Source: an uncultured Micavibrio sp.
GTDB lineage: Bacteria > Pseudomonadota > Alphaproteobacteria > Micavibrionales > Micavibrionaceae
Direction: 5' to 3'
Length of the DNA: 64,000 nucleotides
NCBI GenBank assembly: GCA_964445195.1
Contig: CAYUKA010000004.1
Coordinates: forward strand, 37,134-101,133
The notes beneath the pieces are model-generated. The model saw only the letters and a list, made by a program, of their open reading frames with translations. It made no database searches and was not told the DNA's origin. Positions 45,520-64,000 of the stretch are shown one piece after another. The number at the start of each line of letters is the position of its first letter. Position 1 is the first letter of the stretch. Made by a program: the position numbers and the translations under genes.

Positions 45520-46746
45520 ATGGCCATGGAAAATCTGGGATTAAATAAGGGCGAAGAAATCCTGCTCGATATCGGGGATAGCGCCCGGCGCCGCATTGTC
45601 TGCGGCCTGTGCTGGGACCCGATGAGCGGTGAGGCTGTACCCGTTGATAAAACCACTTCACAGCGCACCGGGGCAACCGATGTCTTCGATCTTGACCTGT
45701 TATGCCTGGTGTATGACAAATACGGCCGGTTCATGGCTGCCGTTACCGGCGATGAGGGTCATCGCACAGGTGACTCAGGCAATATCTATCACACGGGTGA
45801 TGTTGTTGACGGCGAAGATACGCTTGATGACGAGCAAATCTCGCTGGAACTGTTCAACCTGTCCAGCAAGATCGACCAGATCATCTTTATTGCCGAGGTC
45901 CAAAGCCAGCATGACTTTAAAGGCGTGGCCAATCCCGAGATCCGCATTGCCAATGCAATTGACGACCGTAACATGGCCCATGCCGATTTAAGCCAGGCTG
46001 ACGAAGGCGAAGACTCTTACGTCTTTGGCCGCCTGTTTCGCGGGCCTAAAGGCTGGATGTTCGAGTTCATTGGCGATTATTTCAACTCTGATGATATTCA
46101 GGACTGGACTGAAAGCGCGGCGCGCTATGTGAAAAAAGCCGCTCCGGTTGCCTCGGCCGGCGGCAGCACGGGTATGTCGATCCCGTCCAAGGGCGAAACC
46201 GTGCCCCTCTTCTACAGCCGTCAGGCGCGCCATCGCGTTATTGTCGGTCTGAACTGGGACCCCGCCGAAGATCCCGCCGCCGAGAGCGTTGACATGGACC
46301 TCGCCTGCGTCATCTATAACGAGGCAAAGGAGCCGATTGACGGCGTCTCCGCCAAGCCGGAAGAAGCAATCGATGAATCCGGGCGTATCTATCACTCCGG
46401 CGACGATACGGGCGGTGAAGGCGACAAGACGGATGATGAGGCTATATCTGTTGAACTCAAGGATATGCCCGACCACATCCATCATATCGTTTTTCTTGCC
46501 GAAATTCAGAGCAACCATGTTTTCAAAACAATCCTAAACCCAACCTTGCGCGTCGCCGACGCCAAAACCCATGACGAACAACTTCTGGTCTCTATGGACG
46601 GACCGGACGCCGCCAGCAAGACGGCCTGCATCTTCGCGCGCATCTCCCGCCGCGGCGAAGCGTGGACATTGACCAACATCAATGAATATGTGAAAGGTGA
46701 AGCCGTCGAGGACTGGATCGGCTTTCTTCAGCGCTATGTCGGATAG
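45520..46746 (+). CDS. tandem TerD-domain protein (two TerD/CAP-like Ca-binding domains)
   Basis: Each half carries DLD(L/A)xC(L/V)..., IYH(T/S)GD..G(E)..DDE.IS(L/V)EL and I(I/V)F(I/L)AE(V/I)QS blocks, which are typical of the TerD family. Confidence 0.8.
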   Translation: MAMENLGLNKGEEILLDIGDSARRRIVCGLCWDPMSGEAVPVDKTTSQRTGATDVFDLDLLCLVYDKYGRFMAAVTGDEGHRTGDSGNIYHTGDVVDGEDTLDDEQISLELFNLSSKIDQIIFIAEVQSQHDFKGVANPEIRIANAIDDRNMAHADLSQADEGEDSYVFGRLFRGPKGWMFEFIGDYFNSDDIQDWTESAARYVKKAAPVASAGGSTGMSIPSKGETVPLFYSRQARHRVIVGLNWDPAEDPAAESVDMDLACVIYNEAKEPIDGVSAKPEEAIDESGRIYHSGDDTGGEGDKTDDEAISVELKDMPDHIHHIVFLAEIQSNHVFKTILNPTLRVADAKTHDEQLLVSMDGPDAASKTACIFARISRRGEAWTLTNINEYVKGEAVEDWIGFLQRYVG

Positions 46747-47121: not shown

Positions 47122-48609
47122 CTACGGAGCGCTCTCTTCAAGGGGCCCGGCGCGTTGCGGAACATCAGGCGTTCCCGGAGAGCTCTGCACTTCAGCTATA
47201 CTGGCGTGATACCTTTCAATGCTCTCCGGCAAACCACCAAGCCCATCATCAAAAACACGGACTGAGACAACGCCATCCTGCTGCTCTGCCGGCCATGCCT
47301 CATCGATCATCAACGGCAAGTCTGACTGCATGACCAAATCGATATTGTTCTCAATCTCTGATAATTTAGCCGGACCCAGCTCAATACCATGATTACCCGC
47401 TATCCGCAGCAAGCTATATGTATTCATAACCACATGATCCGTCAGCGAAAGCGGATGAAATTCCATACCGCCGATTTCGGTATGCAAAGAAGGATCTTCC
47501 GAAAAAATCTCCATTATCCTGTCATTCGCTTCCGCGAAACCGGCATCTTCATAAGCACTCACGGGAACAAGGTATCTCTCCGCGCCTTTAATGTCATCGT
47601 AGGCCACGCCGCTTAAAACCGCGGTCACTATTTCCAAATTCTCTGCAATCTCGGGATGGGCCGCCGCCCTTTGGGCATAGTCCGCCGCCATTCCTGAAAC
47701 TTCCAGACTTTGATCAAGAGCCTTATTGCAAGCCTCTTCCAACATCTCACGGACCTCATCCTCAGAGACACCCCAGCCGGCATATACATCGCCATCAGTG
47801 CTAACGAAAGGCTCACCGTTTCTGAAGTCTTCGAACGTATGATCAATGTGTAAGGAGTTCAGGTATCCCCTGCCACCGGAAACGACATACAAACCAGAAG
47901 TCGCTTCAATCATACCCCCGGTTCTCATCGATCCCGCGAATGCGTGATTCATGACTGTTATATCCGCACTGCCGAGGCTGCTGAGATACGCACGCGCACT
48001 AATATACGTGTAGTCCTGCGGATTCTTCAATCCTGGCTCTTGTCCTTCAGGCGCAGACTCCAGAATTCTTTGTTCCACCATGGTTGCAATAACACCCATC
48101 ACAGCAGTCTGGCGCTCGCAATCCCATTCGACTTCAAGCGTGCCGTTTTCAATGTCCGTCGAAAGCGCATGCAAACTGTCATGCCTTGTGACGTCCGGAC
48201 TACCGAAAGGCTCTCCGTTGTCCCTCACAAAATAGGAGTGTCTGTAATTTTCACTGGATAGTGCAGGTATTTCATCAAGCCTGTTTTGAATTTCTCTGAA
48301 TAATGTTGCTTCATACTCGCGGGCCAGACGCAAATCCCAGTCCTGTTCGAGAAGTTCGTTTAATACCGTGCCTTCCATTTGCGCCTCAAGTGCGACCTCA
48401 TCGACAATATGACCAATTACCTGGTTCAGCGCATCATCGACTTGCGGATCATACGTTGTTTTCCAGATACCGCGCTGGATCGTCCCGCCGTCCGCAAGGT
48501 CTTTCAGGCTGAAGATCGCCATATCAGGCGTAGACGCAAGCTGATGGACCCTGTCATCAGGCCCGGTGCCCTGATCCGCTCTGCTATTAAAAGCCCCTTT
48601 TAAACTCAT
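47122..48609 (-). CDS. hypothetical protein (495 aa), no signal peptide
   Basis: Long ORF in a lower-GC stretch. No family motif recognised. Confidence 0.6.
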   Translation of the reverse strand: MSLKGAFNSRADQGTGPDDRVHQLASTPDMAIFSLKDLADGGTIQRGIWKTTYDPQVDDALNQVIGHIVDEVALEAQMEGTVLNELLEQDWDLRLAREYEATLFREIQNRLDEIPALSSENYRHSYFVRDNGEPFGSPDVTRHDSLHALSTDIENGTLEVEWDCERQTAVMGVIATMVEQRILESAPEGQEPGLKNPQDYTYISARAYLSSLGSADITVMNHAFAGSMRTGGMIEATSGLYVVSGGRGYLNSLHIDHTFEDFRNGEPFVSTDGDVYAGWGVSEDEVREMLEEACNKALDQSLEVSGMAADYAQRAAAHPEIAENLEIVTAVLSGVAYDDIKGAERYLVPVSAYEDAGFAEANDRIMEIFSEDPSLHTEIGGMEFHPLSLTDHVVMNTYSLLRIAGNHGIELGPAKLSEIENNIDLVMQSDLPLMIDEAWPAEQQDGVVSVRVFDDGLGGLPESIERYHASIAEVQSSPGTPDVPQRAGPLEESAP

Positions 48610-49970: not shown

Positions 49971-50122
49971 CCTGCTGCAAAAACCCGTCTTTCCGTTGAA
50001 GCGATCCTGTAGACGCTAGCACTCAGAACGTTCCGGCACCACCATAACAATACACGCCTGCCACCTTTCCCCTTTTCAGGGTCCGGGTGGCAGACGGTTT
50101 CCCGGCCGGGCGCGCGCGGTCG

Positions 50123-51007
50123 TCAGGACGGCGCCATACCGGGTTGTACAGTCGCAGGCGCCGCTGGCGCAGGAGCCACGGGAGCGACGATTTCCTGAAC
50201 ATCCACATCGACATCACCCGGCGTTACCGCATCGCCAAGAGGATTGCCGTTCATATCGACACGCGTACAGGAAATATCAAGCAGTTCCGGGTAAATTTCG
50301 AAGTTCTGCATGGCTTTCTCGTAAACGGTACCGTAAATCGTGACATCGCACTGATTGTTTGAATCGGGCGACACCGTACCAACGAGCTTTTTCGGAATAT
50401 GCAGTGACCCGTCATTGAACAGGCTGTAGAGATGCCGTGCAAAACTCTTCTCAACATTGTAATACACGGCATCCTCCGTACCGCAATCGCCAAGCGTATC
50501 GCACCCTTTCACTGAGTAGGTGTTGTCACCGTGCGAAACGACTGTGTGCAGGTAAACGGTATCATCCCGAATAGTCGACGCCATGATCCCTCCTTCAACC
50601 GCAAGATTGAACGTAGGGACGACAGCCATCGCCGCCGCCGCGGTAAATGCCAGAACCAGCCCTGCTTTACGGGGCGCAAAGCGCCGTTCACCATCATCGC
50701 CATCCTTATAGGCGAAACGGCTCCAGACCTTGTCCATATACTGGCGATAACCCCAGGCGAAAGGCGGACTGACGGCGTTCCAGACCGGCCGGCCCACCGT
50801 ATCCCACGCCTGTTTCGCCACCGATACGGCGTTGTAGGTAAAATTACCTAACCAGCGCAACCCCTGCAAAGTCTGTTTTAAGCCCTGGACAGCGTTATCG
50901 TTCGGGTTGTCCAGTGCGGTTTCGGCCCGTTCAGACCCCTGATCGGCCTCCCTGTCCAGCTTCGCCAGTCTCTTCAGTAGCAGGTCTTCTTTTCCCTGTT
51001 TAGCCAT
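50123..51007 (-). CDS. single-pass membrane protein with a Cys-containing extracytoplasmic domain and Pro/Ala tail; last gene of the ClpB-like cluster
   Basis: GGGAGG SD 11 nt after the ATPase stop. One TM helix (AGLVLAFTAAAAMAVVPTF). Four Cys residues lie in the C-terminal domain. Confidence 0.6.
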   Translation of the reverse strand: MAKQGKEDLLLKRLAKLDREADQGSERAETALDNPNDNAVQGLKQTLQGLRWLGNFTYNAVSVAKQAWDTVGRPVWNAVSPPFAWGYRQYMDKVWSRFAYKDGDDGERRFAPRKAGLVLAFTAAAAMAVVPTFNLAVEGGIMASTIRDDTVYLHTVVSHGDNTYSVKGCDTLGDCGTEDAVYYNVEKSFARHLYSLFNDGSLHIPKKLVGTVSPDSNNQCDVTIYGTVYEKAMQNFEIYPELLDISCTRVDMNGNPLGDAVTPGDVDVDVQEIVAPVAPAPAAPATVQPGMAPS

Positions 51008-51018
51008 TTTGTCCTCCC

Positions 51019-53364
51019 TTAGCTTGGCATGAATTGTCTGTTTGCAACGTCCCGGGCAGAGTCAGCGCCCGGCGCGTGCCCAGCATCGGCTTTGGCCGCC
51101 GGATGAACCGTGACCTGACCTTTGCTTTCGTCATAGTCGATCTTGATCGTGCCTTCGGCGCTGTCATCGAACAGCAGCGTTCTGGCAATCGCGGGTTTGA
51201 TCGTGCTCTTGATATGGCCGACGATCCCCCGTGCACCCTGTACCGGGTCGTAGTGGTCGCGGCACATCGCAGCGATATCGCTATCGTCGATCGTCACCTC
51301 AAGACCGGGACGGCTGGCTTCAACCATCCGATTCAGCTTGTTGATATCGCGGGCGGCAATTTTCTCAATCACCGGCAGTCCCAGCTTGTCAAAGCACACG
51401 ATATTGCGCCGGCCGTTAAAACGGTTCAGCAACTCCGGCGGCAGTTCCTTGTCGAGGTCATCAAGAGCCTGTTCCTTGGCGAGATCAAAGTCACTTTCAT
51501 TAAGGAAATGCTCCTTACCAACGTTAGAGGTCATGATGATGATCGAGTCGCTGAACGATACGGTCAGGCCCCGGTTATCGGTCAGGCGCCCGTCATCCAG
51601 AACCTGCAGCAGGATCAGGAAGATATCCGGATGTGCCTTTTCGATTTCATCGAACAGGATAATCCGGCGCGGATTTCGCCGCATTTCATTGGTCAGGATA
51701 CCGCCGGCCTCGTAACCCTCGTAGCCCGGAGGCGCCCCGATCAGCTTCGCCAGCGCGTGCTTCTCCTGATATTCCGACATATCGAAACGCAGCAAAGCTT
51801 TCTCATCATCCAGAAGTTCGGACGCCAGCGCCTTGGCCAGTTCGGTCTTACCAACACCTGACGGGCCCAGATACAGGAACGCGCTCTGCGGTTTATCAGG
51901 ATCCTGAAGACCGGCCTTGGCGATCAACACCTCATCGGCCAGCTTCGCCACGGCTTCATCCTGGCCCCAGACCCGGTTGCCGAGATTGGCTTCCAGATTC
52001 TGCAGCTTCGCCTTCTCGTTCTGGGTCAGCTTGCTAACCGGAACGCCCGATATCGCGCTGAACTCGCCGAGCACGTGCTCTTTGGAAAGCTCCAGACCGT
52101 CATTAATTTCGGCTGTCAGACCTTCGAACTTTGCTTTGGTTTCCCCGGCAATGCCCTGGTAAGTCCGTATTTTGTCGCGGATCGCATTGACCTCATCCGA
52201 ACCGAAATTGCCCTGCTGCATGGCGCTGGACATCCGGCTCAGGAACGCCTGTCTTTCACTCGCTGTCGCCGGCACAACATCATCATCGTCATTGCCTGCC
52301 GCTTCGGCGGCTTTACGCTGTTCCTCTTCAGCAGCAAGCTGGGCCTGCAACTCGTCTTCAAGATCACGGATCATTTCCTCTGCCTTGCGCAGGTCTTTAT
52401 AGATGCCCTTGATCTCTTTCTGGCGCGTAGCCCATTCCGTCTCGATCCCGTCAATATCCTGCGCGAGCGACTCCCTGAGAGCCTCCAGCTCAGAGCGTGA
52501 TTTCCCGCCCTGCTCCTCGGAGTAATCCGGATCTTCAAGCGCCGTTGTCACTGAAGCCAGGCGCTGATCCAGTTCATCCAGACGCGGGTCACGGCCATGA
52601 GCCGCCATCCGGTACGAAGTCAGCGCCCGGTCAAGCAGCGTCAGTGACCGCTCCGGCTGTGCCCGACTCAGGCCCAGATCGCGGACCCGGTACTTGTTCG
52701 TCAGCTCAAGCGCCGCGGACACTGCTTCATCTGAAATGGCAATGTGATGGTGACTTTGCAGCCGCTTGGCCGCGGTCTTCACGATCTCTTCAAGGGACTC
52801 CGCATCCGGCTCCTGAATATCGAGCAGCGTGTAGTTCTCTTTCATATCTGAGTGACATTTCAGAACCAGCTCCAGATCTTCGTCCCGCGTTTCAAACACG
52901 GCCTGGAATTTCTTCTGCTTGATTTCCCGCATCAGGCTGTTGATCAGGTTACTGCAGCCGTTATTGCGGGCGCCCTCGATAAAGTCGCGCATATCATCAA
53001 TAATCAGGACCGTGTCCGGGTAGCGCGACAGAGTCTTTAGCATCCGCTGAAAACCCTTATTGATTTCCGAAGGATCACCGGAGGCAAACAGCCCGTCCGT
53101 ATCAAGGAAATAGAAGCGCTTGCTGACCAGGTCGTAAGGCGCATCAGGCTGATCCTTGCTGGCCTGCAGACCCATGCAGATCGCGGAACAGCCAACCCCG
53201 CCGGCCCCGACCAGCAGCACACTGTTGGCCCGCTTTCTCATCAAAACCTTGGTCAGCCTGTCGAGGTCTTTTTCCCGCCCGACCAGCTCGAACTCGGGCA
53301 TTTTGTCCAGGTAATCCCGGCCTCTGACCAGGTAATCCTGTGTATTTGCAATTGCGTCAGTCAT
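51019..53364 (-). CDS. ClpB-derived Hsp100/AAA+ protein lacking the N-domain, with a degenerate NBD1 and an intact NBD2
   Basis: NBD2 motifs are intact ([56 protein letters not shown]). NBD1 reads GAGGVGCSAI and VLIIDDMRDF. A coiled-coil middle region is present. Confidence 0.9.
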   Translation of the reverse strand: MTDAIANTQDYLVRGRDYLDKMPEFELVGREKDLDRLTKVLMRKRANSVLLVGAGGVGCSAICMGLQASKDQPDAPYDLVSKRFYFLDTDGLFASGDPSEINKGFQRMLKTLSRYPDTVLIIDDMRDFIEGARNNGCSNLINSLMREIKQKKFQAVFETRDEDLELVLKCHSDMKENYTLLDIQEPDAESLEEIVKTAAKRLQSHHHIAISDEAVSAALELTNKYRVRDLGLSRAQPERSLTLLDRALTSYRMAAHGRDPRLDELDQRLASVTTALEDPDYSEEQGGKSRSELEALRESLAQDIDGIETEWATRQKEIKGIYKDLRKAEEMIRDLEDELQAQLAAEEEQRKAAEAAGNDDDDVVPATASERQAFLSRMSSAMQQGNFGSDEVNAIRDKIRTYQGIAGETKAKFEGLTAEINDGLELSKEHVLGEFSAISGVPVSKLTQNEKAKLQNLEANLGNRVWGQDEAVAKLADEVLIAKAGLQDPDKPQSAFLYLGPSGVGKTELAKALASELLDDEKALLRFDMSEYQEKHALAKLIGAPPGYEGYEAGGILTNEMRRNPRRIILFDEIEKAHPDIFLILLQVLDDGRLTDNRGLTVSFSDSIIIMTSNVGKEHFLNESDFDLAKEQALDDLDKELPPELLNRFNGRRNIVCFDKLGLPVIEKIAARDINKLNRMVEASRPGLEVTIDDSDIAAMCRDHYDPVQGARGIVGHIKSTIKPAIARTLLFDDSAEGTIKIDYDESKGQVTVHPAAKADAGHAPGADSARDVANRQFMPS

Positions 53365-53445
53365 TTTAGGTACCTCCCCTAATGGCGGGCTGTCGCCTGC
53401 CGTTAAAATTCCTGTAAGTGTTTTGTGTTAACGTTTTGCGGCGCC

Positions 53446-53473
53446 GGGGGAGGCGGTTTACAGCCCCTCCCCC
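53446..53473 (-). other. GC-rich intercistronic hairpin between the coiled-coil gene and the ATPase gene
   Basis: GGGGGAGG (53446..53453) pairs with CCTCCCCC (53466..53473), with a 12-nt loop and no clear U-tract. Confidence 0.45.
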
Positions 53474-53486
53474 TTTGCCTGTCGGT

Positions 53487-55196
53487 TTAAAGGTTCAGGC
53501 CGGCGAACTTGGCAGCGGCACCAGCCGTACCTCCCGCATTGTCCTGTTCCTTCGCCGGTTTCCCGCGGCTATCGCCCGCACCATCATGCATGACATCAGC
53601 CGTCGCGCCCTTCAGCTCCTTGATCGACTGTTCAAGATCACGGGCGGTCTGCTCCATCTGGCCTTGCAGGACCTTGTTCTCCTCGATCGCAGCACGCGTG
53701 ATCTCGGTCGCCTGGTCGCTGATGTCCTTGAAGCCGGCCAGCTTTTCGATCGCCTGTGCGAACTCGTCGTTCTGGATGTGCAGATTAGTGGCGTTCTTGA
53801 TCGCTTCGCTCTGCGCAATCTCCTGCGTGATCCGGTTCATACCCTTAAGCGTGTTCTGGGTCGTGGTCCGGGCCTCGTTCAGGGCGGCAGACGATACCGC
53901 GGTCAGAACGGTGCTCAGGCGGCTTGCAACACCGGCAGTACCGCTGGAGTGCATCTTGCGCGTGCTGTTGATCTGCTGCCTGTTGGTTTCCCGCATGGAA
54001 CGGATGTTCAGGGCTTCTTCCTGAAGCTCGCCCAGCGTGCCGAGCGTGTCGACTTTCGACGAAGTCAGGCTCTCAACGTGCTCGTCAACGGCAACGCCCT
54101 TCTCTTCGCGGTCAAGACGATCAAGCGTGCTCTCGTCCTCGGCCTCGACCTTGAACTTTTCAGAGAGCGTACGGTTGACATTCTCGGCATCTTTAATGCC
54201 GTCGGAAATCACGGCGAAGATCTTGCTCATCTGGCCGTTTACACTGCCGACATTGCCGATCTGGCCCCTGATCCCTTCCATATGTGTCAGAACGGATGCC
54301 GTCCGGTCGTCCATCGTATTGACGAAATTCAGCGCGGCCGAAACGAGTTGCTCCTGCCTTTCCTTATGCTCTTCCGAAGTCAGGTCCAGCAGCTCACGCA
54401 GCTTGTCCTTTTCGGCGGCAAATTCGGCGTACTTACTCTCCCGTTCTACAACCGTGCTTGTGATTTCGGTCTGCAAATCCCGGATGTCGCCGCGGATCCC
54501 GCGGATTTCTTCTTCTTTACGGGCGATGTCCTGCAGGGCGCTCTTTGTAATCCCGCCCATGCCGAACCACCCCTTCTCCTCACGCAGGGCAGCGATATCA
54601 CCATTCAGGCGGCGAATATCCCGCTGATAGCCGTCAATCTTGCCTTCCTGCTCTTCACGCAGCTTGGCAATACGCTCTTCTTCAGCCTTATCCTCCTGGA
54701 TTTCCTTGAAGATATCGTACATCGCACCGTCACTGGCCATGTTCAGCTTGTTCACGGCCTCGATAATTTCGACCAGCGGCGTAATCATGCTCTCGAAATC
54801 AAGAAGCGACTGGTTCATATCCTCGAAGACCTTCTGCAGCTCACCGAATGTTTCGGTATCGGACAGGCGGATGATCTCCTTGGACATTTCCTTACGGTAT
54901 GCCATCAGGAACTCTTTGAACTGCTCGAACGATGCCAGCTTGGCCGCATTCTCTTCCTTGGACAGCGTCTCGTCATAAGCCAGCGCCTGTGCGACCGCCT
55001 TCTGTTTTTCTTCGGGCGCCGCATCAGATTGCATGACAATCTGGTGGAAGGGATTTGCCTCGATATCGGCAAACTTCTCGGTTAGCGGCGTCTCCTTCGC
55101 CTCCTCTTGTGCGGTTGCACGTGTTTTGCTTTTGCGGCCGTACTTCTCGACCGCCTCTTCGGCATAAGTTTTTGCTACTTTTGCACTTGTAGACAT
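53487..55196 (-). CDS. 569-aa predicted coiled-coil protein of unknown function
   Basis: AGGAGG SD. E/K/Q/L/A-rich heptad-like sequence runs along the whole length. No TM segment or signal peptide. Confidence 0.7.
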   Translation of the reverse strand: MSTSAKVAKTYAEEAVEKYGRKSKTRATAQEEAKETPLTEKFADIEANPFHQIVMQSDAAPEEKQKAVAQALAYDETLSKEENAAKLASFEQFKEFLMAYRKEMSKEIIRLSDTETFGELQKVFEDMNQSLLDFESMITPLVEIIEAVNKLNMASDGAMYDIFKEIQEDKAEEERIAKLREEQEGKIDGYQRDIRRLNGDIAALREEKGWFGMGGITKSALQDIARKEEEIRGIRGDIRDLQTEITSTVVERESKYAEFAAEKDKLRELLDLTSEEHKERQEQLVSAALNFVNTMDDRTASVLTHMEGIRGQIGNVGSVNGQMSKIFAVISDGIKDAENVNRTLSEKFKVEAEDESTLDRLDREEKGVAVDEHVESLTSSKVDTLGTLGELQEEALNIRSMRETNRQQINSTRKMHSSGTAGVASRLSTVLTAVSSAALNEARTTTQNTLKGMNRITQEIAQSEAIKNATNLHIQNDEFAQAIEKLAGFKDISDQATEITRAAIEENKVLQGQMEQTARDLEQSIKELKGATADVMHDGAGDSRGKPAKEQDNAGGTAGAAAKFAGLNL

Positions 55197-55239
55197 GAAA
55201 GCCTCCTCTTTGCTTTTTTCAAGTAATAAAAATCTTTTA

Positions 55240-55258
55240 CTGATAAAAACTTTATCAG
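55240..55258. promoter_or_regulatory. perfect 8-3-8 palindrome CTGATAAA-AAC-TTTATCAG, candidate operator
   Basis: Exact inverted repeat about 45 nt upstream of the 569-aa gene start. Confidence 0.4.
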
Positions 55259-55370
55259 CACTTAAATTTTACTTTAGTTTAGATACAACTCTCCCGCCCC
55301 CGGCTTGCGCCGCGGCTTCAGGCAGGATCACGCCTGCACATTGTCTATGGCGGGAAAAACACGATCAGCT

Positions 55371-55400
55371 TTACGAGCTGTCGAAGATAAATACGATCAT
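55371..55400 (-). other. 9-codon mini-ORF (MIVFIFDSS) with a strong SD in the long spacer
   Basis: The minus strand reads GGGAGGttacttATGATCGTATTTATCTTCGACAGCTCGTAA. Confidence 0.2.
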
Positions 55401-55768
55401 AAGTAACCTCCCTGTTTCATTTTTATTAGACACAAAACATCCCTTGCCACCGGCACAAGCACCGGAGATCAAAAGAAACCTTTTCAAAGCTGATGGAGAA
55501 AAACCTGAGATAACAAGCTGTTAAAGCGCAGGATTAAACCCCCGTGCGGCGCAAGGCCGACGCGTTAGCTTGTTCGTCGTTTATCTTGAGATTGTATAGC
55601 AGCCGCCGCAGGCGAGCCTGGTATGTAACGAAGCATCAAATCTCTCCCTTTTAAGTCCTTCACAAATGCGAAAGCACCGGTTTCCCTACGCCTTCACACC
55701 TATAAAAACCGAAAGGAATGGGGTTTACTGCAATCTGCGTCCCGCTTCATTTTCGTATTTATACTTAT

Positions 55769-55797
55769 TTTTTATTTGTTTTTTTACTTAGTGTCAA
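55769..55797 (-). promoter_or_regulatory. candidate sigma70-type promoter at the upstream end of the spacer
   Basis: On the minus strand: TTGACA (55797..55792), a 17-nt spacer, then TAAAAA (55774..55769), within an AT-rich tract. Confidence 0.3.
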
Positions 55798-55860
55798 CAA
55801 AATAAATTCGAAAGTGGTTTTTTCGAGACAGACTGTGACGAAAGATGTGATGAAAACGGC

Positions 55861-57270
55861 TTATTCACCCGGTGCAGGAGCAGCTGCAGGATCTTGCGGC
55901 GGCTGCTCTGGGGCTGGTGCCGGCGAATCGCCAGCAGGCGCGGCCGGACCGCCGCTTTGCTGGTCACCCTGTGGCGAAAGCACGCCGGACAATGATGTGC
56001 CGAACGCTTCCATAATCTCATTGAGTTGCGGCAGAAATTGCTGGATGAATCCGAGAAAAGCCTCAACAAGGCCGGACACCATCTGTCCGAACTCCGGCCC
56101 GAGAAGTTGAGTCGCAACCTCAGTCATGCCGTTACTGACGGTCATAAAGCGTGAAAACATATCAAGCTGGGCAACGGCCTCGTTCGGATTTTCGCGGAAC
56201 TGCGTTACAAACGTATCAACCAGCCCCGGCTTCGTGTGAATGGCATCGGCAGCCGCGCTAAAGAAATTATCGTTCTGCATTGCCTGTGAATGTACAGCAT
56301 CGAGAAATGCGATGCTCTGCTGCGGCGCCTGATCGAAGCTACCGAGCATATCCTGAAAGACCTCGCGCAAGCCCTCGTGATCACCAGCCGCCTGCAGAAA
56401 CTCGGTATAGCCGGGGCGATCAATGATCTGGTTCATCTTGAGGAAAAAGTCCGGGTCCTGCGCGGCCAGCCCTTCAAGTTGTGCCAGTTTCTGCGCCAGA
56501 AAGTCCGGATCTGGATCAGCCGCGCCGCCCGCCATAATATCCATGAACGCAGTGCCTAACGTTTCATTTGTCGCCAGCCTGCCAACAAACTCCTCAAATC
56601 CGGCCGGCAATTCCGGCTCGGGCGCTGCGGGTGTTGCGGCGTCATCCGGGGCTGGCGGTTGCTCGGCCTCGGCCTCAACCTCAACATCGTCCCCGGCCGT
56701 AACATCCGCACCGCCGGCACTCTCATCGACCGCCGCGCTTTCATCAGCGACTGGCGTTTCAGGCACCGGCGCTCCCTCATCTACAACAGCCTCATCACCG
56801 GTCGCTTCTGATGTTTCCGGTGTCTCATCATCCGCTACAACATCTTCTACCGCTGCCGGAGGTTCTGGTTCTGATTCTGGCTGCGGTTCCGGCTCAGGCT
56901 CTGACACAGCGGCTGGCGCGGCTTCTGCGCCAACACCCAATATAGAGGCAATGTCCTGCGGACTTTGCCCGATCGTATCGATATTATCGATCAGTGCCTG
57001 CGGATCGGCTATTACCGCGGCTGAAATGCCGTCCAAGGACTCTTGCTCCATACCCGCGAGCACTGTCATAACTTCCGGGTTGGCCCTTATCGCCGCCTTG
57101 ATCTCGTCAGACGCGCTTTTCAAAGTTTCGTTACCGCTAGCCTGCTGCTGCAGGTCTATAAACCACCTTTCCAGATGAGGCGTTTCTATCAGTTCCTGGG
57201 CCGCTTCCGCGCCCACAAATTCTTCATAAAGAGGCTGTTTCATCCATACCGGGAAGTTACTGATATCCAT
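55861..57270 (-). CDS. 469-aa acidic two-lobed protein with a Pro/Glu/Ala-rich linker
   Basis: Long ORF. It starts 3 nt after the stop of the 133-aa gene. The linker reads EPEPEPQPESEPEPP... Confidence 0.65.
   Translation of the reverse strand: MDISNFPVWMKQPLYEEFVGAEAAQELIETPHLERWFIDLQQQASGNETLKSASDEIKAAIRANPEVMTVLAGMEQESLDGISAAVIADPQALIDNIDTIGQSPQDIASILGVGAEAAPAAVSEPEPEPQPESEPEPPAAVEDVVADDETPETSEATGDEAVVDEGAPVPETPVADESAAVDESAGGADVTAGDDVEVEAEAEQPPAPDDAATPAAPEPELPAGFEEFVGRLATNETLGTAFMDIMAGGAADPDPDFLAQKLAQLEGLAAQDPDFFLKMNQIIDRPGYTEFLQAAGDHEGLREVFQDMLGSFDQAPQQSIAFLDAVHSQAMQNDNFFSAAADAIHTKPGLVDTFVTQFRENPNEAVAQLDMFSRFMTVSNGMTEVATQLLGPEFGQMVSGLVEAFLGFIQQFLPQLNEIMEAFGTSLSGVLSPQGDQQSGGPAAPAGDSPAPAPEQPPQDPAAAPAPGE
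56861..56902. repeat. imperfect hexanucleotide repeat (7 units, GGYTCN) encoding the (E/S)P linker
   Basis: ggttct ggttct gattct ggctgc ggttcc ggctca ggctct. Confidence 0.7.
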
Positions 57271-57273
57271 AAT

Positions 57274-57675
57274 CTATACCTCCCCCGTCTCTTGATACGA
57301 CATGTCGTCCGTTGTTCGTACAACGAGCGGCACGATGTACAGGTCTTTCATGACCTCATCAACCTGATAAATGACATTGCCCTGCGAAGCCTGACGCATG
57401 TGTCCGGCAATCACCGGATCGACCGTCATGCCCAGATCAAGCATTGTGCCGTCATGACGGATAAAATCGAGCGTCGCCGCGCCCGGGTCGAATTCCATCC
57501 ATTTAAGCTGCCCCGGAAACGGCCGGTCATGCATAACCCATACCTGCCCCTTGGCATTGGCGACAAGGTCGACATTCATGCCCGCCGTCAGGCTCGTTAC
57601 ATTCTCAGGAAAGACCGGCGTCTCTTCCGCCGTTTTGATGATACTGCGCCTATTAAAGGCTTTTATAAAATTCAT
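57274..57675 (-). CDS. 133-aa hypothetical protein, first gene of the cluster
   Basis: ORF with an AAGGTG SD-like sequence. No motif recognised. Confidence 0.55.
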   Translation of the reverse strand: MNFIKAFNRRSIIKTAEETPVFPENVTSLTAGMNVDLVANAKGQVWVMHDRPFPGQLKWMEFDPGAATLDFIRHDGTMLDLGMTVDPVIAGHMRQASQGNVIYQVDEVMKDLYIVPLVVRTTDDMSYQETGEV

Positions 57676-61530: not shown

Positions 61531-64000
61531 TTAGGCCGCGGAGCGGTTTTTCCCGTTCTTTCGGCCGGCCTTGACGGCAAAAGTCAGGGCACCGGTCTTC
61601 ACAGACACGCTGACATCCGCGTTATCGGCAATCTCGCCCTTGAGAATTAACTCGGCCAGCCGGTTTTGCAGCTCGGTCTGGATCACCCTCTTCAGCGGCC
61701 GGGCACCATAGGCCGGGTCATAGCCCTTGTCTGCCAGCCACTGTTTAGACTTCTCATCAAGGCTGAGGGTAATCTGCCGGTCATCCAGCAGGCTATGAAG
61801 ATAGGCAAGCTGGATATCGACAATACCGGTCATCTGCTCCCGCCCCAGACGCTTGAACAGCAGGATATCGTCCAGACGGTTCAGGAATTCCGGCCGGAAC
61901 GCGCCGCGCACGACGTTCATAACATCGTCCCGCACCGCCTCAACATCTTCGCCCTCTTTCTGGTTGACGAGATACTCCGCCCCAAGATTAGAGGTCATGA
62001 TCAGCACTGTATTGGAGAAATCGACCGTCCGCCCCTGCCCGTCTGTCAGGCGGCCGTCATCGAGAACCTGAAGCAGGATATTAAACACATCCGGATGCGC
62101 CTTCTCAACTTCATCAAATAAAACAACCTGGTATGGCCGCCTTCTAACAGACTCGGTGAGCGCGCCACCTTCTTCATAACCAACATAGCCCGGCGGTGCG
62201 CCAATCATTCGCGCAACAGCATGCTTCTCCATATATTCGGACATATCAATCCGGACCATCGCGCTGTCATCATCGAACATGAATTCGGCCAGCGCCTTGG
62301 TCAGTTCGGTCTTGCCGACACCTGTCGGGCCGAGGAACAGGAAGGAGCCGATCGGCCGGCGCGGGTCCTGTAACCCGGCACGGGAACGGCGGATTGCATT
62401 GGCCACCGCATGCACAGCATCGTCCTGGCCGACGACGCGCTGGCGAATCTTGTCCTCCATCGCCAGCAGTTTCTCACGCTCCCCTTCCATCATCTTATCG
62501 ACAGGAATACCGGTCCAGCGGCTAACGATGCTGGCGATTTCATCGGCCGTGACTTCTTCCTTGATCAGGTTCTGGCCCTCGGCTTTGGCAGCATCTTCCA
62601 ATTTCTGCTCCAGACCGGGAATCCTCGCATGCATCAGCTCGCCCGCCTTGGTCCAGTCGCCCTCGCGCTGTGCCTTTTCAAGCTCCATGCGCGCATGGTC
62701 CAGCTTTTCGGTCAGCTTCTGGCCCGATTGCAGCTTTTCTTTCTCGGCCTGCCACTGGCTGGTCATATCCGCCGATTGCTGCTCCAGTTCATCAAGCTCG
62801 GTCTCAAGCTTGTCGAGCCGGTCTTTTGTCGCGTTGTCGTCCTTTTCTTTCTTCAGCGCTTCGCGCTCGATCTTGAGCTGCATAATCCGCCGGTCCAGCT
62901 CATCGACATCCTCAGGCTTGGAATCGACCTGCATCCGCAGCCGTGACGAGGCTTCGTCCATCAGATCAATCGCCTTGTCGGGCAGGAAACGGTCGGTAAT
63001 ATAACGGTTAGACAGCGTCGCCGCCGACACGATCGCCGAGTCGGTAATCCGGACGCCGTGATGGACCTCGTATTTTTCCTTCAGCCCGCGCAGAATCGAA
63101 ATCGTATCCTCAACCGTCGGCTCGGCGATAAAGACCGGCTGGAACCGCCGCGCCAGCGCCGCGTCCTTTTCAATATGCTTGCGGTACTCATCAAGCGTTG
63201 TCGCTCCAACCATATGCAGCTCGCCCCGCGCCAGTGCGGGTTTGAGCATATTCGAAGCATCCATTGCCCCGTCGGCCTTGCCCGCGCCAACGACTGTGTG
63301 CATTTCATCGAGAAACAGGACGATTTCACCGGCATGGGCGCCGATTTCATCAAGCACGGCTTTCAGGCGTTCCTCAAACTCGCCGCGGAACTTGGCCCCG
63401 GCAATCATCGCTCCCAGATCAAGCGCCATCAGCCGCTTGTTCTTGAGACTTTCCGGCACGTCACCATTGACGATCCGCAGCGCCAGCCCTTCAACGATTG
63501 CCGTTTTGCCGACCCCCGGCTCACCGATCAGCACCGGATTATTCTTGGTGCGGCGTGACAGCACCTGGATCGTACGGCGAATCTCCTCATCCCGGCCAAT
63601 GACCGGGTCAAGCCTGCCCTCCCGCGCCGCATCCGTCAGGTCACGGGCGAAACGGTTCAGCGCGTCAAACTGGCCTTCAGCCGTCGGCGAGTCGGCCGTA
63701 CGTCCCTTGCGCATGTCATTGATCGCCTGGTTCAGCGTTGCCGGCGTAACCCGCGCACCGTCCAGGATCCCCTCAATATCGGTCGCCTTGGCCATCGCCA
63801 TCGCCTGCACGATACGCTCGCCAGTCACATATTTATCACCGGCTTTTTCGGCCAAATTCAAAGCACTATCGAGTATCTTTGCCAAATCAGTTGAAATACG
63901 CAGGCCGCTGCCGCCGCCGGTTACCTCGGGAAATTTTGCCAGCGCGACGTCGATATCCTTACTCAGGCGCTCCAGATCACCGCCCGCAGCCTGCACCAGC
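61531..64000 (-). CDS. clpB: canonical chaperone ClpB (N-terminal ~45 aa outside the window)
   Basis: [66 protein letters not shown], and [15 protein letters not shown]. It is close to E. coli ClpB throughout. Confidence 0.95.

Follow-up and report, generated by a model that had tools for sequence, protein, structure and literature searches.

Hsp100 proteins are textbook general disaggregases. ClpB/Hsp104 has two AAA+ modules (D1 and D2), with a coiled-coil M-domain inserted in D1, and lacks a ClpP loop. ClpV (TssH) of the type VI secretion system (T6SS) coexists with ClpB and, to our knowledge, is the sole well-studied bacterial Hsp100 paralog dedicated to one linked structural client. The N-domain of ClpV binds VipB, and both of its rings are active. 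Here we describe a candidate system in a 64,000-nt stretch of DNA (the window) from an uncultured Micavibrio sp. (contig CAYUKA010000004.1). A gene for a ClpB-derived ATPase lies between one coding for a long helical protein and one coding for a predicted membrane protein. This trio is kept in order and orientation in about 30 loci of the Gammaproteobacteria, Alphaproteobacteria and Desulfobacterota, while the flanks vary. No description of the ATPase clade or of the trio module was found in the published literature. We regard the trio as a real candidate system, and a fairly interesting one, with a function that is predicted only. If the mechanism proposed below is true, the trio would be a second, independent case after ClpV of an Hsp100 protein dedicated to a linked client.

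The open-reading-frame listing of the window confirmed five minus-strand genes in this region, coding for proteins of 133, 469, 569, 781 and 294 aa (Table 1). A preliminary description of the DNA had proposed that all five form one cluster encoding a dedicated and undescribed ClpB-derived system. Its account of the genes themselves was accurate: the coordinates, the shared orientation, the 3 nt between the 133- and 469-aa genes, the 664 nt between the 469- and 569-aa genes (55197-55860) and the 11 nt from the ATPase stop to the start of the 294-aa gene all check out, as does the Shine-Dalgarno (SD) sequence GGGAGG, within taaGGGAGGacaaaATG, that precedes the latter. Also borne out were a degenerate first ATPase module, an all-helical 569-aa protein, an acidic 469-aa protein with a linker, a single-pass 294-aa protein with a Cys-containing outer domain, and a housekeeping clpB encoded separately about 8 kb away. 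Neither T6SS nor ClpP/ClpS partner genes are found among the window neighbors or the flanks of trio loci. The four partner proteins have no matches in Pfam, NCBIfam, PADLOC or PHROG, and profile searches assign none of them to a well-characterized family. The idea of a dedicated system holds for the helical protein, the ATPase and the membrane protein, whose families occur together, but not for the 133- and 469-aa proteins, which have homologs in none of the approximately 30 trio loci, closest relatives included.

To place the trio, we scanned one genome per species, seeding the search with a helical-protein alignment and two peptide patterns. The 25 loci recovered (L008-L032) are a lower bound. 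The gammaproteobacterial hosts are Halopseudomonas, Arenicellales, Cellvibrionaceae, Wenzhouxiangellaceae, Woeseiaceae and Pseudohongiella, the alphaproteobacterial hosts are Micavibrio and Rhodospirillales, and the Desulfobacterota are represented by Desulfuromonadales and Geopsychrobacteraceae. When the window proteins were compared with the loci by tblastn, the ATPase gene proved to be the next gene after that of the helical protein in 23 of 24 informative loci, L032 being the exception. The third-protein family follows the ATPase in 21 of 22 informative loci seeded with the helical protein. In 27 loci the ATPase stop is followed, at a distance of -4 to +28 nt, by the start of an ORF (open reading frame) of 236-304 aa; one distant locus (L030) is the exception. 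Loci seeded by the ATPase or by the third protein yielded the same trio. Five neighborhoods of ATPase orthologs, with unlike flanks, code for a protein of ~565-585 aa, the ATPase and a protein of ~236-279 aa. The upstream proteins in the ATPase-seeded loci are homologs of the window 569-aa protein (38% and 66% identity), and the downstream proteins are weakly, though significantly, related to the 294-aa protein. The closest relatives, with helical proteins 64-75% identical and third proteins 51-57% identical, keep the trio, and the genes upstream of it (Fe-ADH, ThiF/Pmp3 or MlaA-MlaC) are unlike those in the window. By tblastn, relatives of the 133-, 469- and 495-aa and APH proteins of the window are encoded in none of the ~30 trio loci. 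Such clustering of the three genes is far more than chance would give. As the trio is conserved without the 133- and 469-aa genes, the unit consists of three genes rather than five. It is highly probable that the real unit is a three-gene operon on the minus strand at 50056-55797 of the window that has a promoter of its own and a ~560-nt leader.

Table 1. Genes and putative regulatory elements of the trio locus, with the two genes preceding it, in 5' to 3' order of the minus strand.
Feature	Position	Strand	Remarks
133-aa gene	57274-57675	-	Orphan
469-aa gene	55861-57270	-	Acidic orphan
Promoter-like box	55769..55797	-	TTGACA-N17-TAAAAA, then conserved TAAGTATAAAT; 64 nt past the 469-aa stop
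Hairpin R1	55628..55710	-	19-bp interrupted stem, 3' strand GGAUUUGURAA near-invariant; RNAalifold, 7 loci
uORF1	55565..55636	-	23 codons, MLRYIPGSPAAAAIQSQDKRRTS; SD AAGGGAGAG just 3' of R1
Second leader hairpin	55433..55465	-	CCGG...CCGG, then purine-rich box AGGGAtGTTTTG; by eye
uORF2	55371..55400	-	Exactly 9 codons, MIVFIFDSS-stop; strong SD CAGGGAGG; five loci
Gene-proximal hairpin	55240..55258	-	CUGAUAAAG...UUUAUCAG, then UAAAAG and a U-rich tract; attenuator-like
Gene 1, 569-aa helical protein	53487-55196	-	First member here of an unannotated family
Spacer hairpin	53446..53473	-	GC-rich, GGGGGAGGGG...CCGCCUCCCCC, in the 122-nt gene 1-ATPase spacer; stable fold
Gene 2, 781-aa class-I Hsp100 ATPase	51019-53364	-	No N-domain, dead D1, long M-domain, intact D2
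Gene 3, 294-aa predicted bitopic membrane protein (N-in)	50123-51007	-	One transmembrane segment, 4-Cys outer domain
Terminal hairpin	50056..50095	-	10-bp, GC-rich, CUGCCACC...GGUGGCAG, then GCGUGUAUUGUUAU; 28 nt past the gene 3 stop

The ATPase has more than 120 full-length orthologs of 707-797 aa (54-73% identity), including proteins from Rhodospirillales, Woeseiaceae, Thiodiazotropha, Pseudomonas neustonica and Halopseudomonas. Databases name members of the ATPase and helical-protein families 'AAA family ATPase', 'ClpB' or 'hypothetical protein'. The window ATPase has a class-I Hsp100 architecture: ClpB, ClpC and ClpA in the PDB match it at E 1e-85 to 1e-101, and its Pfam matches are AAA_2 (PF07724, E 1.9e-55), AAA_lid_9 (PF17871, 4.4e-11) and ClpB_D2-small (PF10431, 1.6e-7). 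The Clp_N domain gave no match in the window ATPase, and D1 starts ~30 residues from the N-terminus in all aligned members. In the window the D1 Walker A reads GAGGVGCS. At the position of the Walker-A Lys (window residue 59), the 117 scorable orthologs have Cys (97), Gly (14), Ala (4), Asn (1) or Ser (1) and never Lys. D1 also has DD as its Walker B and no longer has the pore-loop Tyr. D2 is intact, with GPSGVGKT and DEIEKA each found in 118 of 120 members, the pore loop PPGYEGY in 117 of 120, and the Arg finger and GAR kept. Given a D1 that lacks catalytic residues and a complete D2, the ATPase belongs to a distinct Hsp100 clade that, judging from these motifs, can be powered by ring 2 alone and not by ring 1. 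The Cys at the D1 Walker-A Lys position in 97 of the 117 orthologs (GGVGCSA) suggests a retained role, for example in nucleotide binding without hydrolysis or as a redox switch, over simple decay.

One of the closest described systems is ClpB/Hsp104. Besides the overall architecture, the trio ATPase shares with it the D2 Walker A and B motifs, pore-loop Tyr, Arg finger, sensor 2 and D2-small domain, and its best PDB and NCBIfam matches are ClpB. It differs in lacking the N-domain, in a D1 that is dead across the clade, in an M-domain ~40 residues longer, in a D2 pore loop of GYEG where ClpB has GYVG, and in its linkage to two dedicated partner genes. A true ClpB coexists with it: the housekeeping protein encoded at 61531-63996 (minus strand, ~8.2 kb from the ATPase gene) scores 1331.7 bits against the TIGR03346 cut-off of 1232.1. 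The trio ATPase scores 423.7 bits on this ClpB model; with a score this far below the cut-off, no N-domain and a catalytically incompetent D1, it is not ClpB. Neither is it ClpV/TssH. Its score on TIGR03345 is 356 bits, below the cut-off of 884.95, and T6SS linkage is missing among the window neighbors and the 133 flanking proteins surveyed in 27 loci. The likeness to ClpV lies in the proposed logic, an Hsp100 paralog beside ClpB and dedicated to one linked structural substrate, and the clade has neither the N-domain nor the two active rings of ClpV. A protease partner of the ClpA/ClpC/ClpX type was likewise rejected: the ClpP-docking tripeptide [ILVM]G[FL] is present in 25 of 120 members and is not conserved as an IGF/LGF loop, and ClpP and ClpS are absent from the flanks of trio loci. 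ClpI of the Actinomycetota belongs to a different family with intact modules. Skd3 (human CLPB) is also derived from Hsp100, has a single active ring of the D2 type, does not work with ClpP and matches D2 at E ~1e-44. However, Skd3 has ankyrin repeats in place of D1, whereas the trio ATPase keeps an inactive full-length D1 and the M-domain, and the genomic partners differ. A D1 dead throughout the clade, mostly with Cys for the Walker-A Lys, the loss of the N-domain and two unannotated partner families make the system unusual among Hsp100 proteins. The module provides a natural single-ring Hsp100 for mechanistic work. Because it is found in cultured Halopseudomonas species, genetics should be feasible.

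The helical protein belongs to a family with 252 word-index matches and 335 clusters at 50% identity (E <= 1e-3). Nearly all members are 530-615 aa and align over their full length. The AlphaFold2 (AF2) model of the window protein is all helix, with helices of up to 114 residues, at medium confidence (pLDDT 73, pTM 0.49). A disordered N-terminus is followed by a conserved KFAxIExNPF motif, and a conserved loop, KSWFGxGG, joins two long helices. Residues 405-470 are highly conserved and rich in small residues, with low model confidence. The protein ends in an acidic disordered tail with the conserved ending F-x-x-[LF]-[NK]-[LI]. It is predicted to be cytoplasmic, with no transmembrane (TM) segment (maximum Kyte-Doolittle value 1.24) and no signal peptide. 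Pfam searches with 60 family members gave scattered sub-threshold matches, none of them consistent, and the PDB sequence/profile search with the window protein gave nothing meaningful. When the model was compared with the PDB and BFVD by Foldseek, the best PDB match was at E 5e-3, and the matches were to long helices and coiled coils in general, among them ClyA-family toxins, chemoreceptors, coiled coils of SMC proteins and TelA-like phage proteins. Those to ClyA-like and TelA-like proteins count as weak leads. Three identities were considered and rejected. TelA (PF05816) has no profile match in the window protein or the 60 members, the structural likeness to TelA-like proteins in BFVD being weak (TMt 0.29-0.35). 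Matches to DUF1040/YihD, a lead from a JGI name, and to DUF7753 are not consistent across members. ESCRT-III/PspA is absent from the top 50 Foldseek PDB matches and from the Pfam results (Snf7/PspA). A TerD-double-domain protein of 408 aa is encoded ~3.4 kb beyond the trio (45520-46746, plus strand; E 9e-45). TerD was not seen adjoining other trios, and given the weak TelA-like matches this neighbor is a curiosity.

The ClyA-family matches bear on a different role for the helical protein. In the PTEX translocon of Plasmodium (HSP101-PTEX150-EXP2), the Hsp100 sits on a ClyA-like EXP2 pore, and PTEX, like the trio, is a three-part Hsp100 machine with helical and membrane subunits at a membrane. 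By this precedent the trio ATPase would unfold the helical protein or other cargo and drive it into the inner membrane or across it, by way of protein 3 or beside it, and the helical protein may be a membrane-inserting subunit of the ClyA/EXP2 type. AhlC matches the model with probability 0.99 and TMt 0.51 at E 0.12, YaxAB matches at E 0.07 and SmhB is found as well. The conserved hydrophobic loop KSWFGxGG, the small-residue segment at 405-470 and the tight spacing of the ATPase and membrane-protein genes could also be read this way. These matches are weak, however; at E 0.07-0.18 they are on par with those of many unrelated coiled coils. The helical protein lacks hydrophobicity sufficient to span a membrane, protein 3 has one TM segment, and the flank survey found no conserved outer-membrane or secretin-like partner. 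Compared with PTEX itself, there is no detectable homology among the partners, the likeness to ClyA/EXP2 is weak (Foldseek E ~0.1), HSP101 has two active rings where D1 is dead in the trio ATPase, and the host is bacterial. We therefore consider a translocon improbable.

The third protein has a hydrophobic segment at residues 115-133 (Kyte-Doolittle 1.94), with basic residues before it and four Cys after it. Members of the family align from an N-terminal helix with D-x-L-L-x-R, through a juxtamembrane FSxKR and the TM segment, to an outer domain in which three Cys are invariant and one is near-invariant in the joint alignment. A hidden Markov model of the main third-gene family matches, of all the window proteins, the 294-aa protein alone (E 3.5e-9). 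Among the genome loci, the closest third protein is that of the Micavibrio locus L016. Divergence of the outer domain is strong within the window clade, where proteins 1 and 2 are still 65-75% identical. The 294-aa protein has no Pfam match; its outer domain has no PDB match, and its N-terminal helix matches designed helical proteins only. As the structure model is poor, the topology is drawn from hydropathy, the positive-inside rule and the Cys pattern. On these grounds we infer that the protein crosses the inner membrane once, with the N-terminal helix in the cytoplasm and a four-Cys domain of the disulfide type in the periplasm. The module contributes two new protein families, one with a new periplasmic four-Cys domain.

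The trio also appears to have a control region of its own. The 664-bp stretch upstream of gene 1, previously read as a gap inside one operon, holds the trio's conserved promoter and leader, which are kept where the 133- and 469-aa genes are absent. Alignment of the leaders revealed conserved noncoding blocks upstream of the helical gene, though the encoded proteins are just 38-75% identical. The promoter-like box and the trailing TTAAGTATAAAT span 55797-55758. The consensus TTGAC[ATG]-N17-TAAAA[GA]-TTAA[GA]TATA[AG]AT is kept in the window, L033, L035, L037, L039 and L001, and the box lies 124-140 nt upstream of hairpin R1 in every locus that has it. It was not flagged by a generic sigma-70 scan of the region, and when the sequences preceding the trio in every locus were searched by regex for sigma-32, sigma-54, sigma-E and sigma-70 sites, no special promoter common to them emerged. 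The box probably works as a promoter.

Hairpin R1 is supported by covariation among seven sequences: 96.2% of cells pair, versus 37-55% when the partners are slid, five pairs have compensatory changes, and the covariation score was reached by none of 500 shuffles. The R1 covariance model has a single match in the window (66.7 bits). Outside the training set it matches L007 (E 5e-6) and the Micavibrio locus L016 (E 0.002), on the right strand and upstream of the helical gene, and it has no match in gammaproteobacterial loci. This absence makes the leader specific to one clade. Rfam contains no family matching the leader beyond a chance-level sR30 (E 0.75). The leader is upstream of the helical gene in nine loci (the window, L001, L007, L016, L033, L035, L036, L037 and L039), and in all nine an upstream ORF (uORF1) preceded by an SD begins at the 3' edge of R1. 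It is 14-50 codons long and mostly starts M-[LF]-R, beyond which the peptide is not conserved. Two further hairpins are common to the window, L033, L035, L036 and L037. One, judged by eye, is the second hairpin with its purine-rich box; the stem sequences differ and the box is conserved. The other is a CUGAnn...nnUCAG hairpin at the same place, ~40 nt before the ATG, which was also found in the single-sequence fold (z = -2.6). In five loci there is also the 9-codon uORF2, 142-213 nt before the helical-gene ATG, encoding MIVFIFDSS, MSIAVFDTS, MILSVFDTS, MNQYFNNTS or MTYKIFAPP (M-x-x-x-[VIF]-F-[DNA]-x-[SP]-stop). Its Ser and stop codons vary synonymously, and its 3' end is inside a small hairpin followed by a T-run.

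The cat86 and cmlA leaders are leader-peptide attenuators of nine codons. The trio leader resembles them in having a 9-codon uORF with a strong SD upstream of a structure that precedes what would, by analogy, be the regulated gene. The peptides are unrelated, and the trio leader adds a long 5' hairpin and a second uORF. With its covariation support and conserved 9-codon uORF, it would be a new cis-regulatory leader.

Loci without the 133- and 469-aa genes keep the promoter box and leader, so this control region belongs to the trio itself. This bears directly on the five-gene reading. In that reading the 133- and 469-aa proteins would be extra subunits or clients co-transcribed with the trio. 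The two genes are adjacent to it and co-oriented, both products are orphans with no assigned function, and the 64 nt from the 469-aa stop to the promoter box show no evident hairpin terminator, so read-through from the upstream genes into the trio is possible. However, co-orientation alone ties them to the trio; no other trio locus has them, even among the closest relatives, and pattern scans of metagenome contigs, sensitive to close relatives alone, yielded no relatives of either. The five-gene system is already largely refuted by synteny and we consider it very improbable. The 133- and 469-aa genes form a unit of their own and are orphans restricted to this lineage. The 469-aa protein has a pI of 4.05, with 87 Asp and Glu to 13 Lys and Arg, and a Pro/Glu-rich linker at about residues 115-225; a PDB sequence/profile search with it gave nothing meaningful. 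With phmmer, residues 12-58 of the 133-aa protein matched lambda Cro marginally (E 0.005; stretch ...G.V...PFP...), probably by chance. Very acidic orphans are found on both sides of the trio, as a 495-aa protein (47122-48609, minus strand, pI 4.29) is encoded on the side opposite the 469-aa gene (55861-57270, minus strand, pI 4.05). Each is a singleton cluster with no family match.

Within the operon, gene 1 is succeeded by a stable hairpin in 13 of the 25 distinct loci (z -2.5 to -6.3), and T-runs come after some of these, as in canonical terminators. The hairpin-bearing spacers are those of the window, L001, L002, L007, L008, L009, L011-L014, L019, L029 and L030, and their sequences are unrelated. 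The recurrence of hairpins of unrelated sequence at this place suggests recurrent selection for more helical protein than ATPase, and points to the helical protein being made in larger amount. The hairpin past gene 3 was not flagged by a simple terminator scan; it likely marks the 3' end of the unit, presumably as a terminator.

The relative amounts matter for another role, membrane-proximal quality control, in which the ATPase would be a disaggregase or dislocase specialized for envelope or membrane proteins that have been damaged. The helical protein would then be not the substrate but an adaptor or co-chaperone replacing the N-domain and DnaK coupling, and protein 3 an anchor or stress sensor. 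A helical protein that is conserved like the ATPase, of fixed length and apparently in excess better suits a structural subunit. The canonical ClpB coexisting in the window and the lack of a heat-shock promoter upstream of the trio in our scans also argue against this role. It is nonetheless consistent with a complete, ClpB-like D2 without a ClpP loop, which favors remodeling over degradation, and with the lost N-domain and changed M-domain, which call for another means of substrate recruitment. An anchor with a periplasmic Cys domain, flanks that are housekeeping rather than defense genes, and SPFH/NfeD genes beside the trio in one clade would fit as well. On balance we consider quality control unlikely.

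As a whole, the locus is best explained, tentatively and with somewhat less than even confidence, by a three-gene operon for a membrane-tethered, D2-driven unfoldase that would remodel or recycle an assembly of the helical protein, much as ClpV acts on the T6SS sheath or Vps4 on ESCRT-III. Taken by itself, this mechanism is more doubtful, though possible. The cytoplasmic part of protein 3 would hold the ATPase hexamer at the inner membrane. The D2 ring alone would thread the helical protein, beginning at a disordered conserved tail, and threading would disassemble, recycle or reset a higher-order assembly of that protein at the inner membrane. The intercistronic hairpin would keep the helical protein in excess, the machine would be linked to the envelope through the periplasmic Cys domain, and uORF translation in the leader would gate expression after transcription has started.

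Several points weigh against this explanation. Contacts between the proteins, oligomerization of the helical protein and its threading are inferred by analogy. The helical model has no Foldseek PDB match at E < 1e-3, and because the matches are of the generic long-helix kind, a filament or lattice is not demonstrated; both its filament-like nature and the assembly-machine reading of the preliminary description are conjectural. The AF2 model of the 294-aa protein, built on a four-sequence alignment, reached a pLDDT of 41. The spacer hairpin is not universal, as it is missing in Woeseiaceae/Wenzhouxiangellaceae-type loci (gaps of 5-65 nt), and the structured leader is not universal to the system either. 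In the distant Rhodospirillales locus L030, a 69-aa Gly/Ala-rich membrane protein (L030:12402-12611, plus strand) replaces gene 3, and in a Pseudomonadales metagenome-assembled genome the helical-protein gene has no adjoining ATPase (L032:6935-8734, plus strand).

Vps4-ESCRT-III/CdvABC and PspF-PspA-PspBC offer a further comparison. Like the trio as we propose it, they combine an AAA+ ATPase with a helical polymer-former and small membrane anchors or sensors. The AAA+ clade is Hsp100 in the trio, and meiotic/Vps4 or bacterial enhancer-binding protein in those systems. No ESCRT-III or PspA structure is among the top Foldseek matches of the helical protein, and it has no PspA/Snf7 Pfam match. 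It is rather unlikely, but conceivable, that the trio is an unrecognized membrane machine built on a one-engine Hsp100, with an ESCRT/Vps4-like polymer cycle or PTEX-like feeding, switched by its leader through a 9-codon sensor peptide.

The surroundings of the trio were surveyed through 133 flanking proteins from 27 loci. No neighbor is universal; the commonest are methyltransferases (9), and Band_7/SPFH with NfeD (4 each) occur in a single group of related loci. The window helical protein is 64-66% identical to the Halopseudomonas versions and 35-38% identical to those of Rhodospirillales. This discordance between trio phylogeny and taxonomy indicates horizontal transfer of the module, as judged from protein identities. 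The module is self-contained, lies at varied chromosomal sites and is not typical of defense islands.

Mobility raises the question of a conflict system, anti-phage or abortive infection, in which the ATPase of a mobile three-gene module would control a membrane-acting effector. The patchy distribution, the discordant phylogeny and the self-contained module at differing sites fit such a system, as does an AAA_13/AriA-like gene adjoining the trio in L002. The D2 region of the ATPase also matches the PADLOC candidates PDC-M37B (E 2e-35) and DolB (E 2e-24), but these matches span the shared AAA_2 domain alone and the partners match nothing, and PDC-M37 and Dol were rejected as identities of the system. 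PADLOC found no recurrent defense genes in the flanks, which are overwhelmingly housekeeping, and the defense-island reading was rejected because of this content. The trio has no nuclease or toxin domain, and its conservation in sequence and length is unusually high for defense genes. A role in conflict thus has little likelihood.

Some neighbors recur in part of the loci. In L020, L021, L023 and L024, of the Wenzhouxiangellaceae type, an NfeD and Band_7/SPFH pair is divergent beside the trio (~6.0-7.8 kb, minus strand); it could fit the membrane theme or simply be inherited synteny. Immediately downstream of the trio, a DUF4402 gene is followed by a very large gene in three related loci (L001:13171-17883, L005:5899-9194 and L036:5788-9497, minus strand). 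The large gene of L001 encodes an RTX/HemolysinCabind protein, and the window is without the DUF4402 pair. Two arrangements were seen once each: MlaA-MlaC directly upstream of the trio (L039:168-1686) and an ABC-F (Uup-like) gene 69 nt downstream of it (L035:10948-12789).

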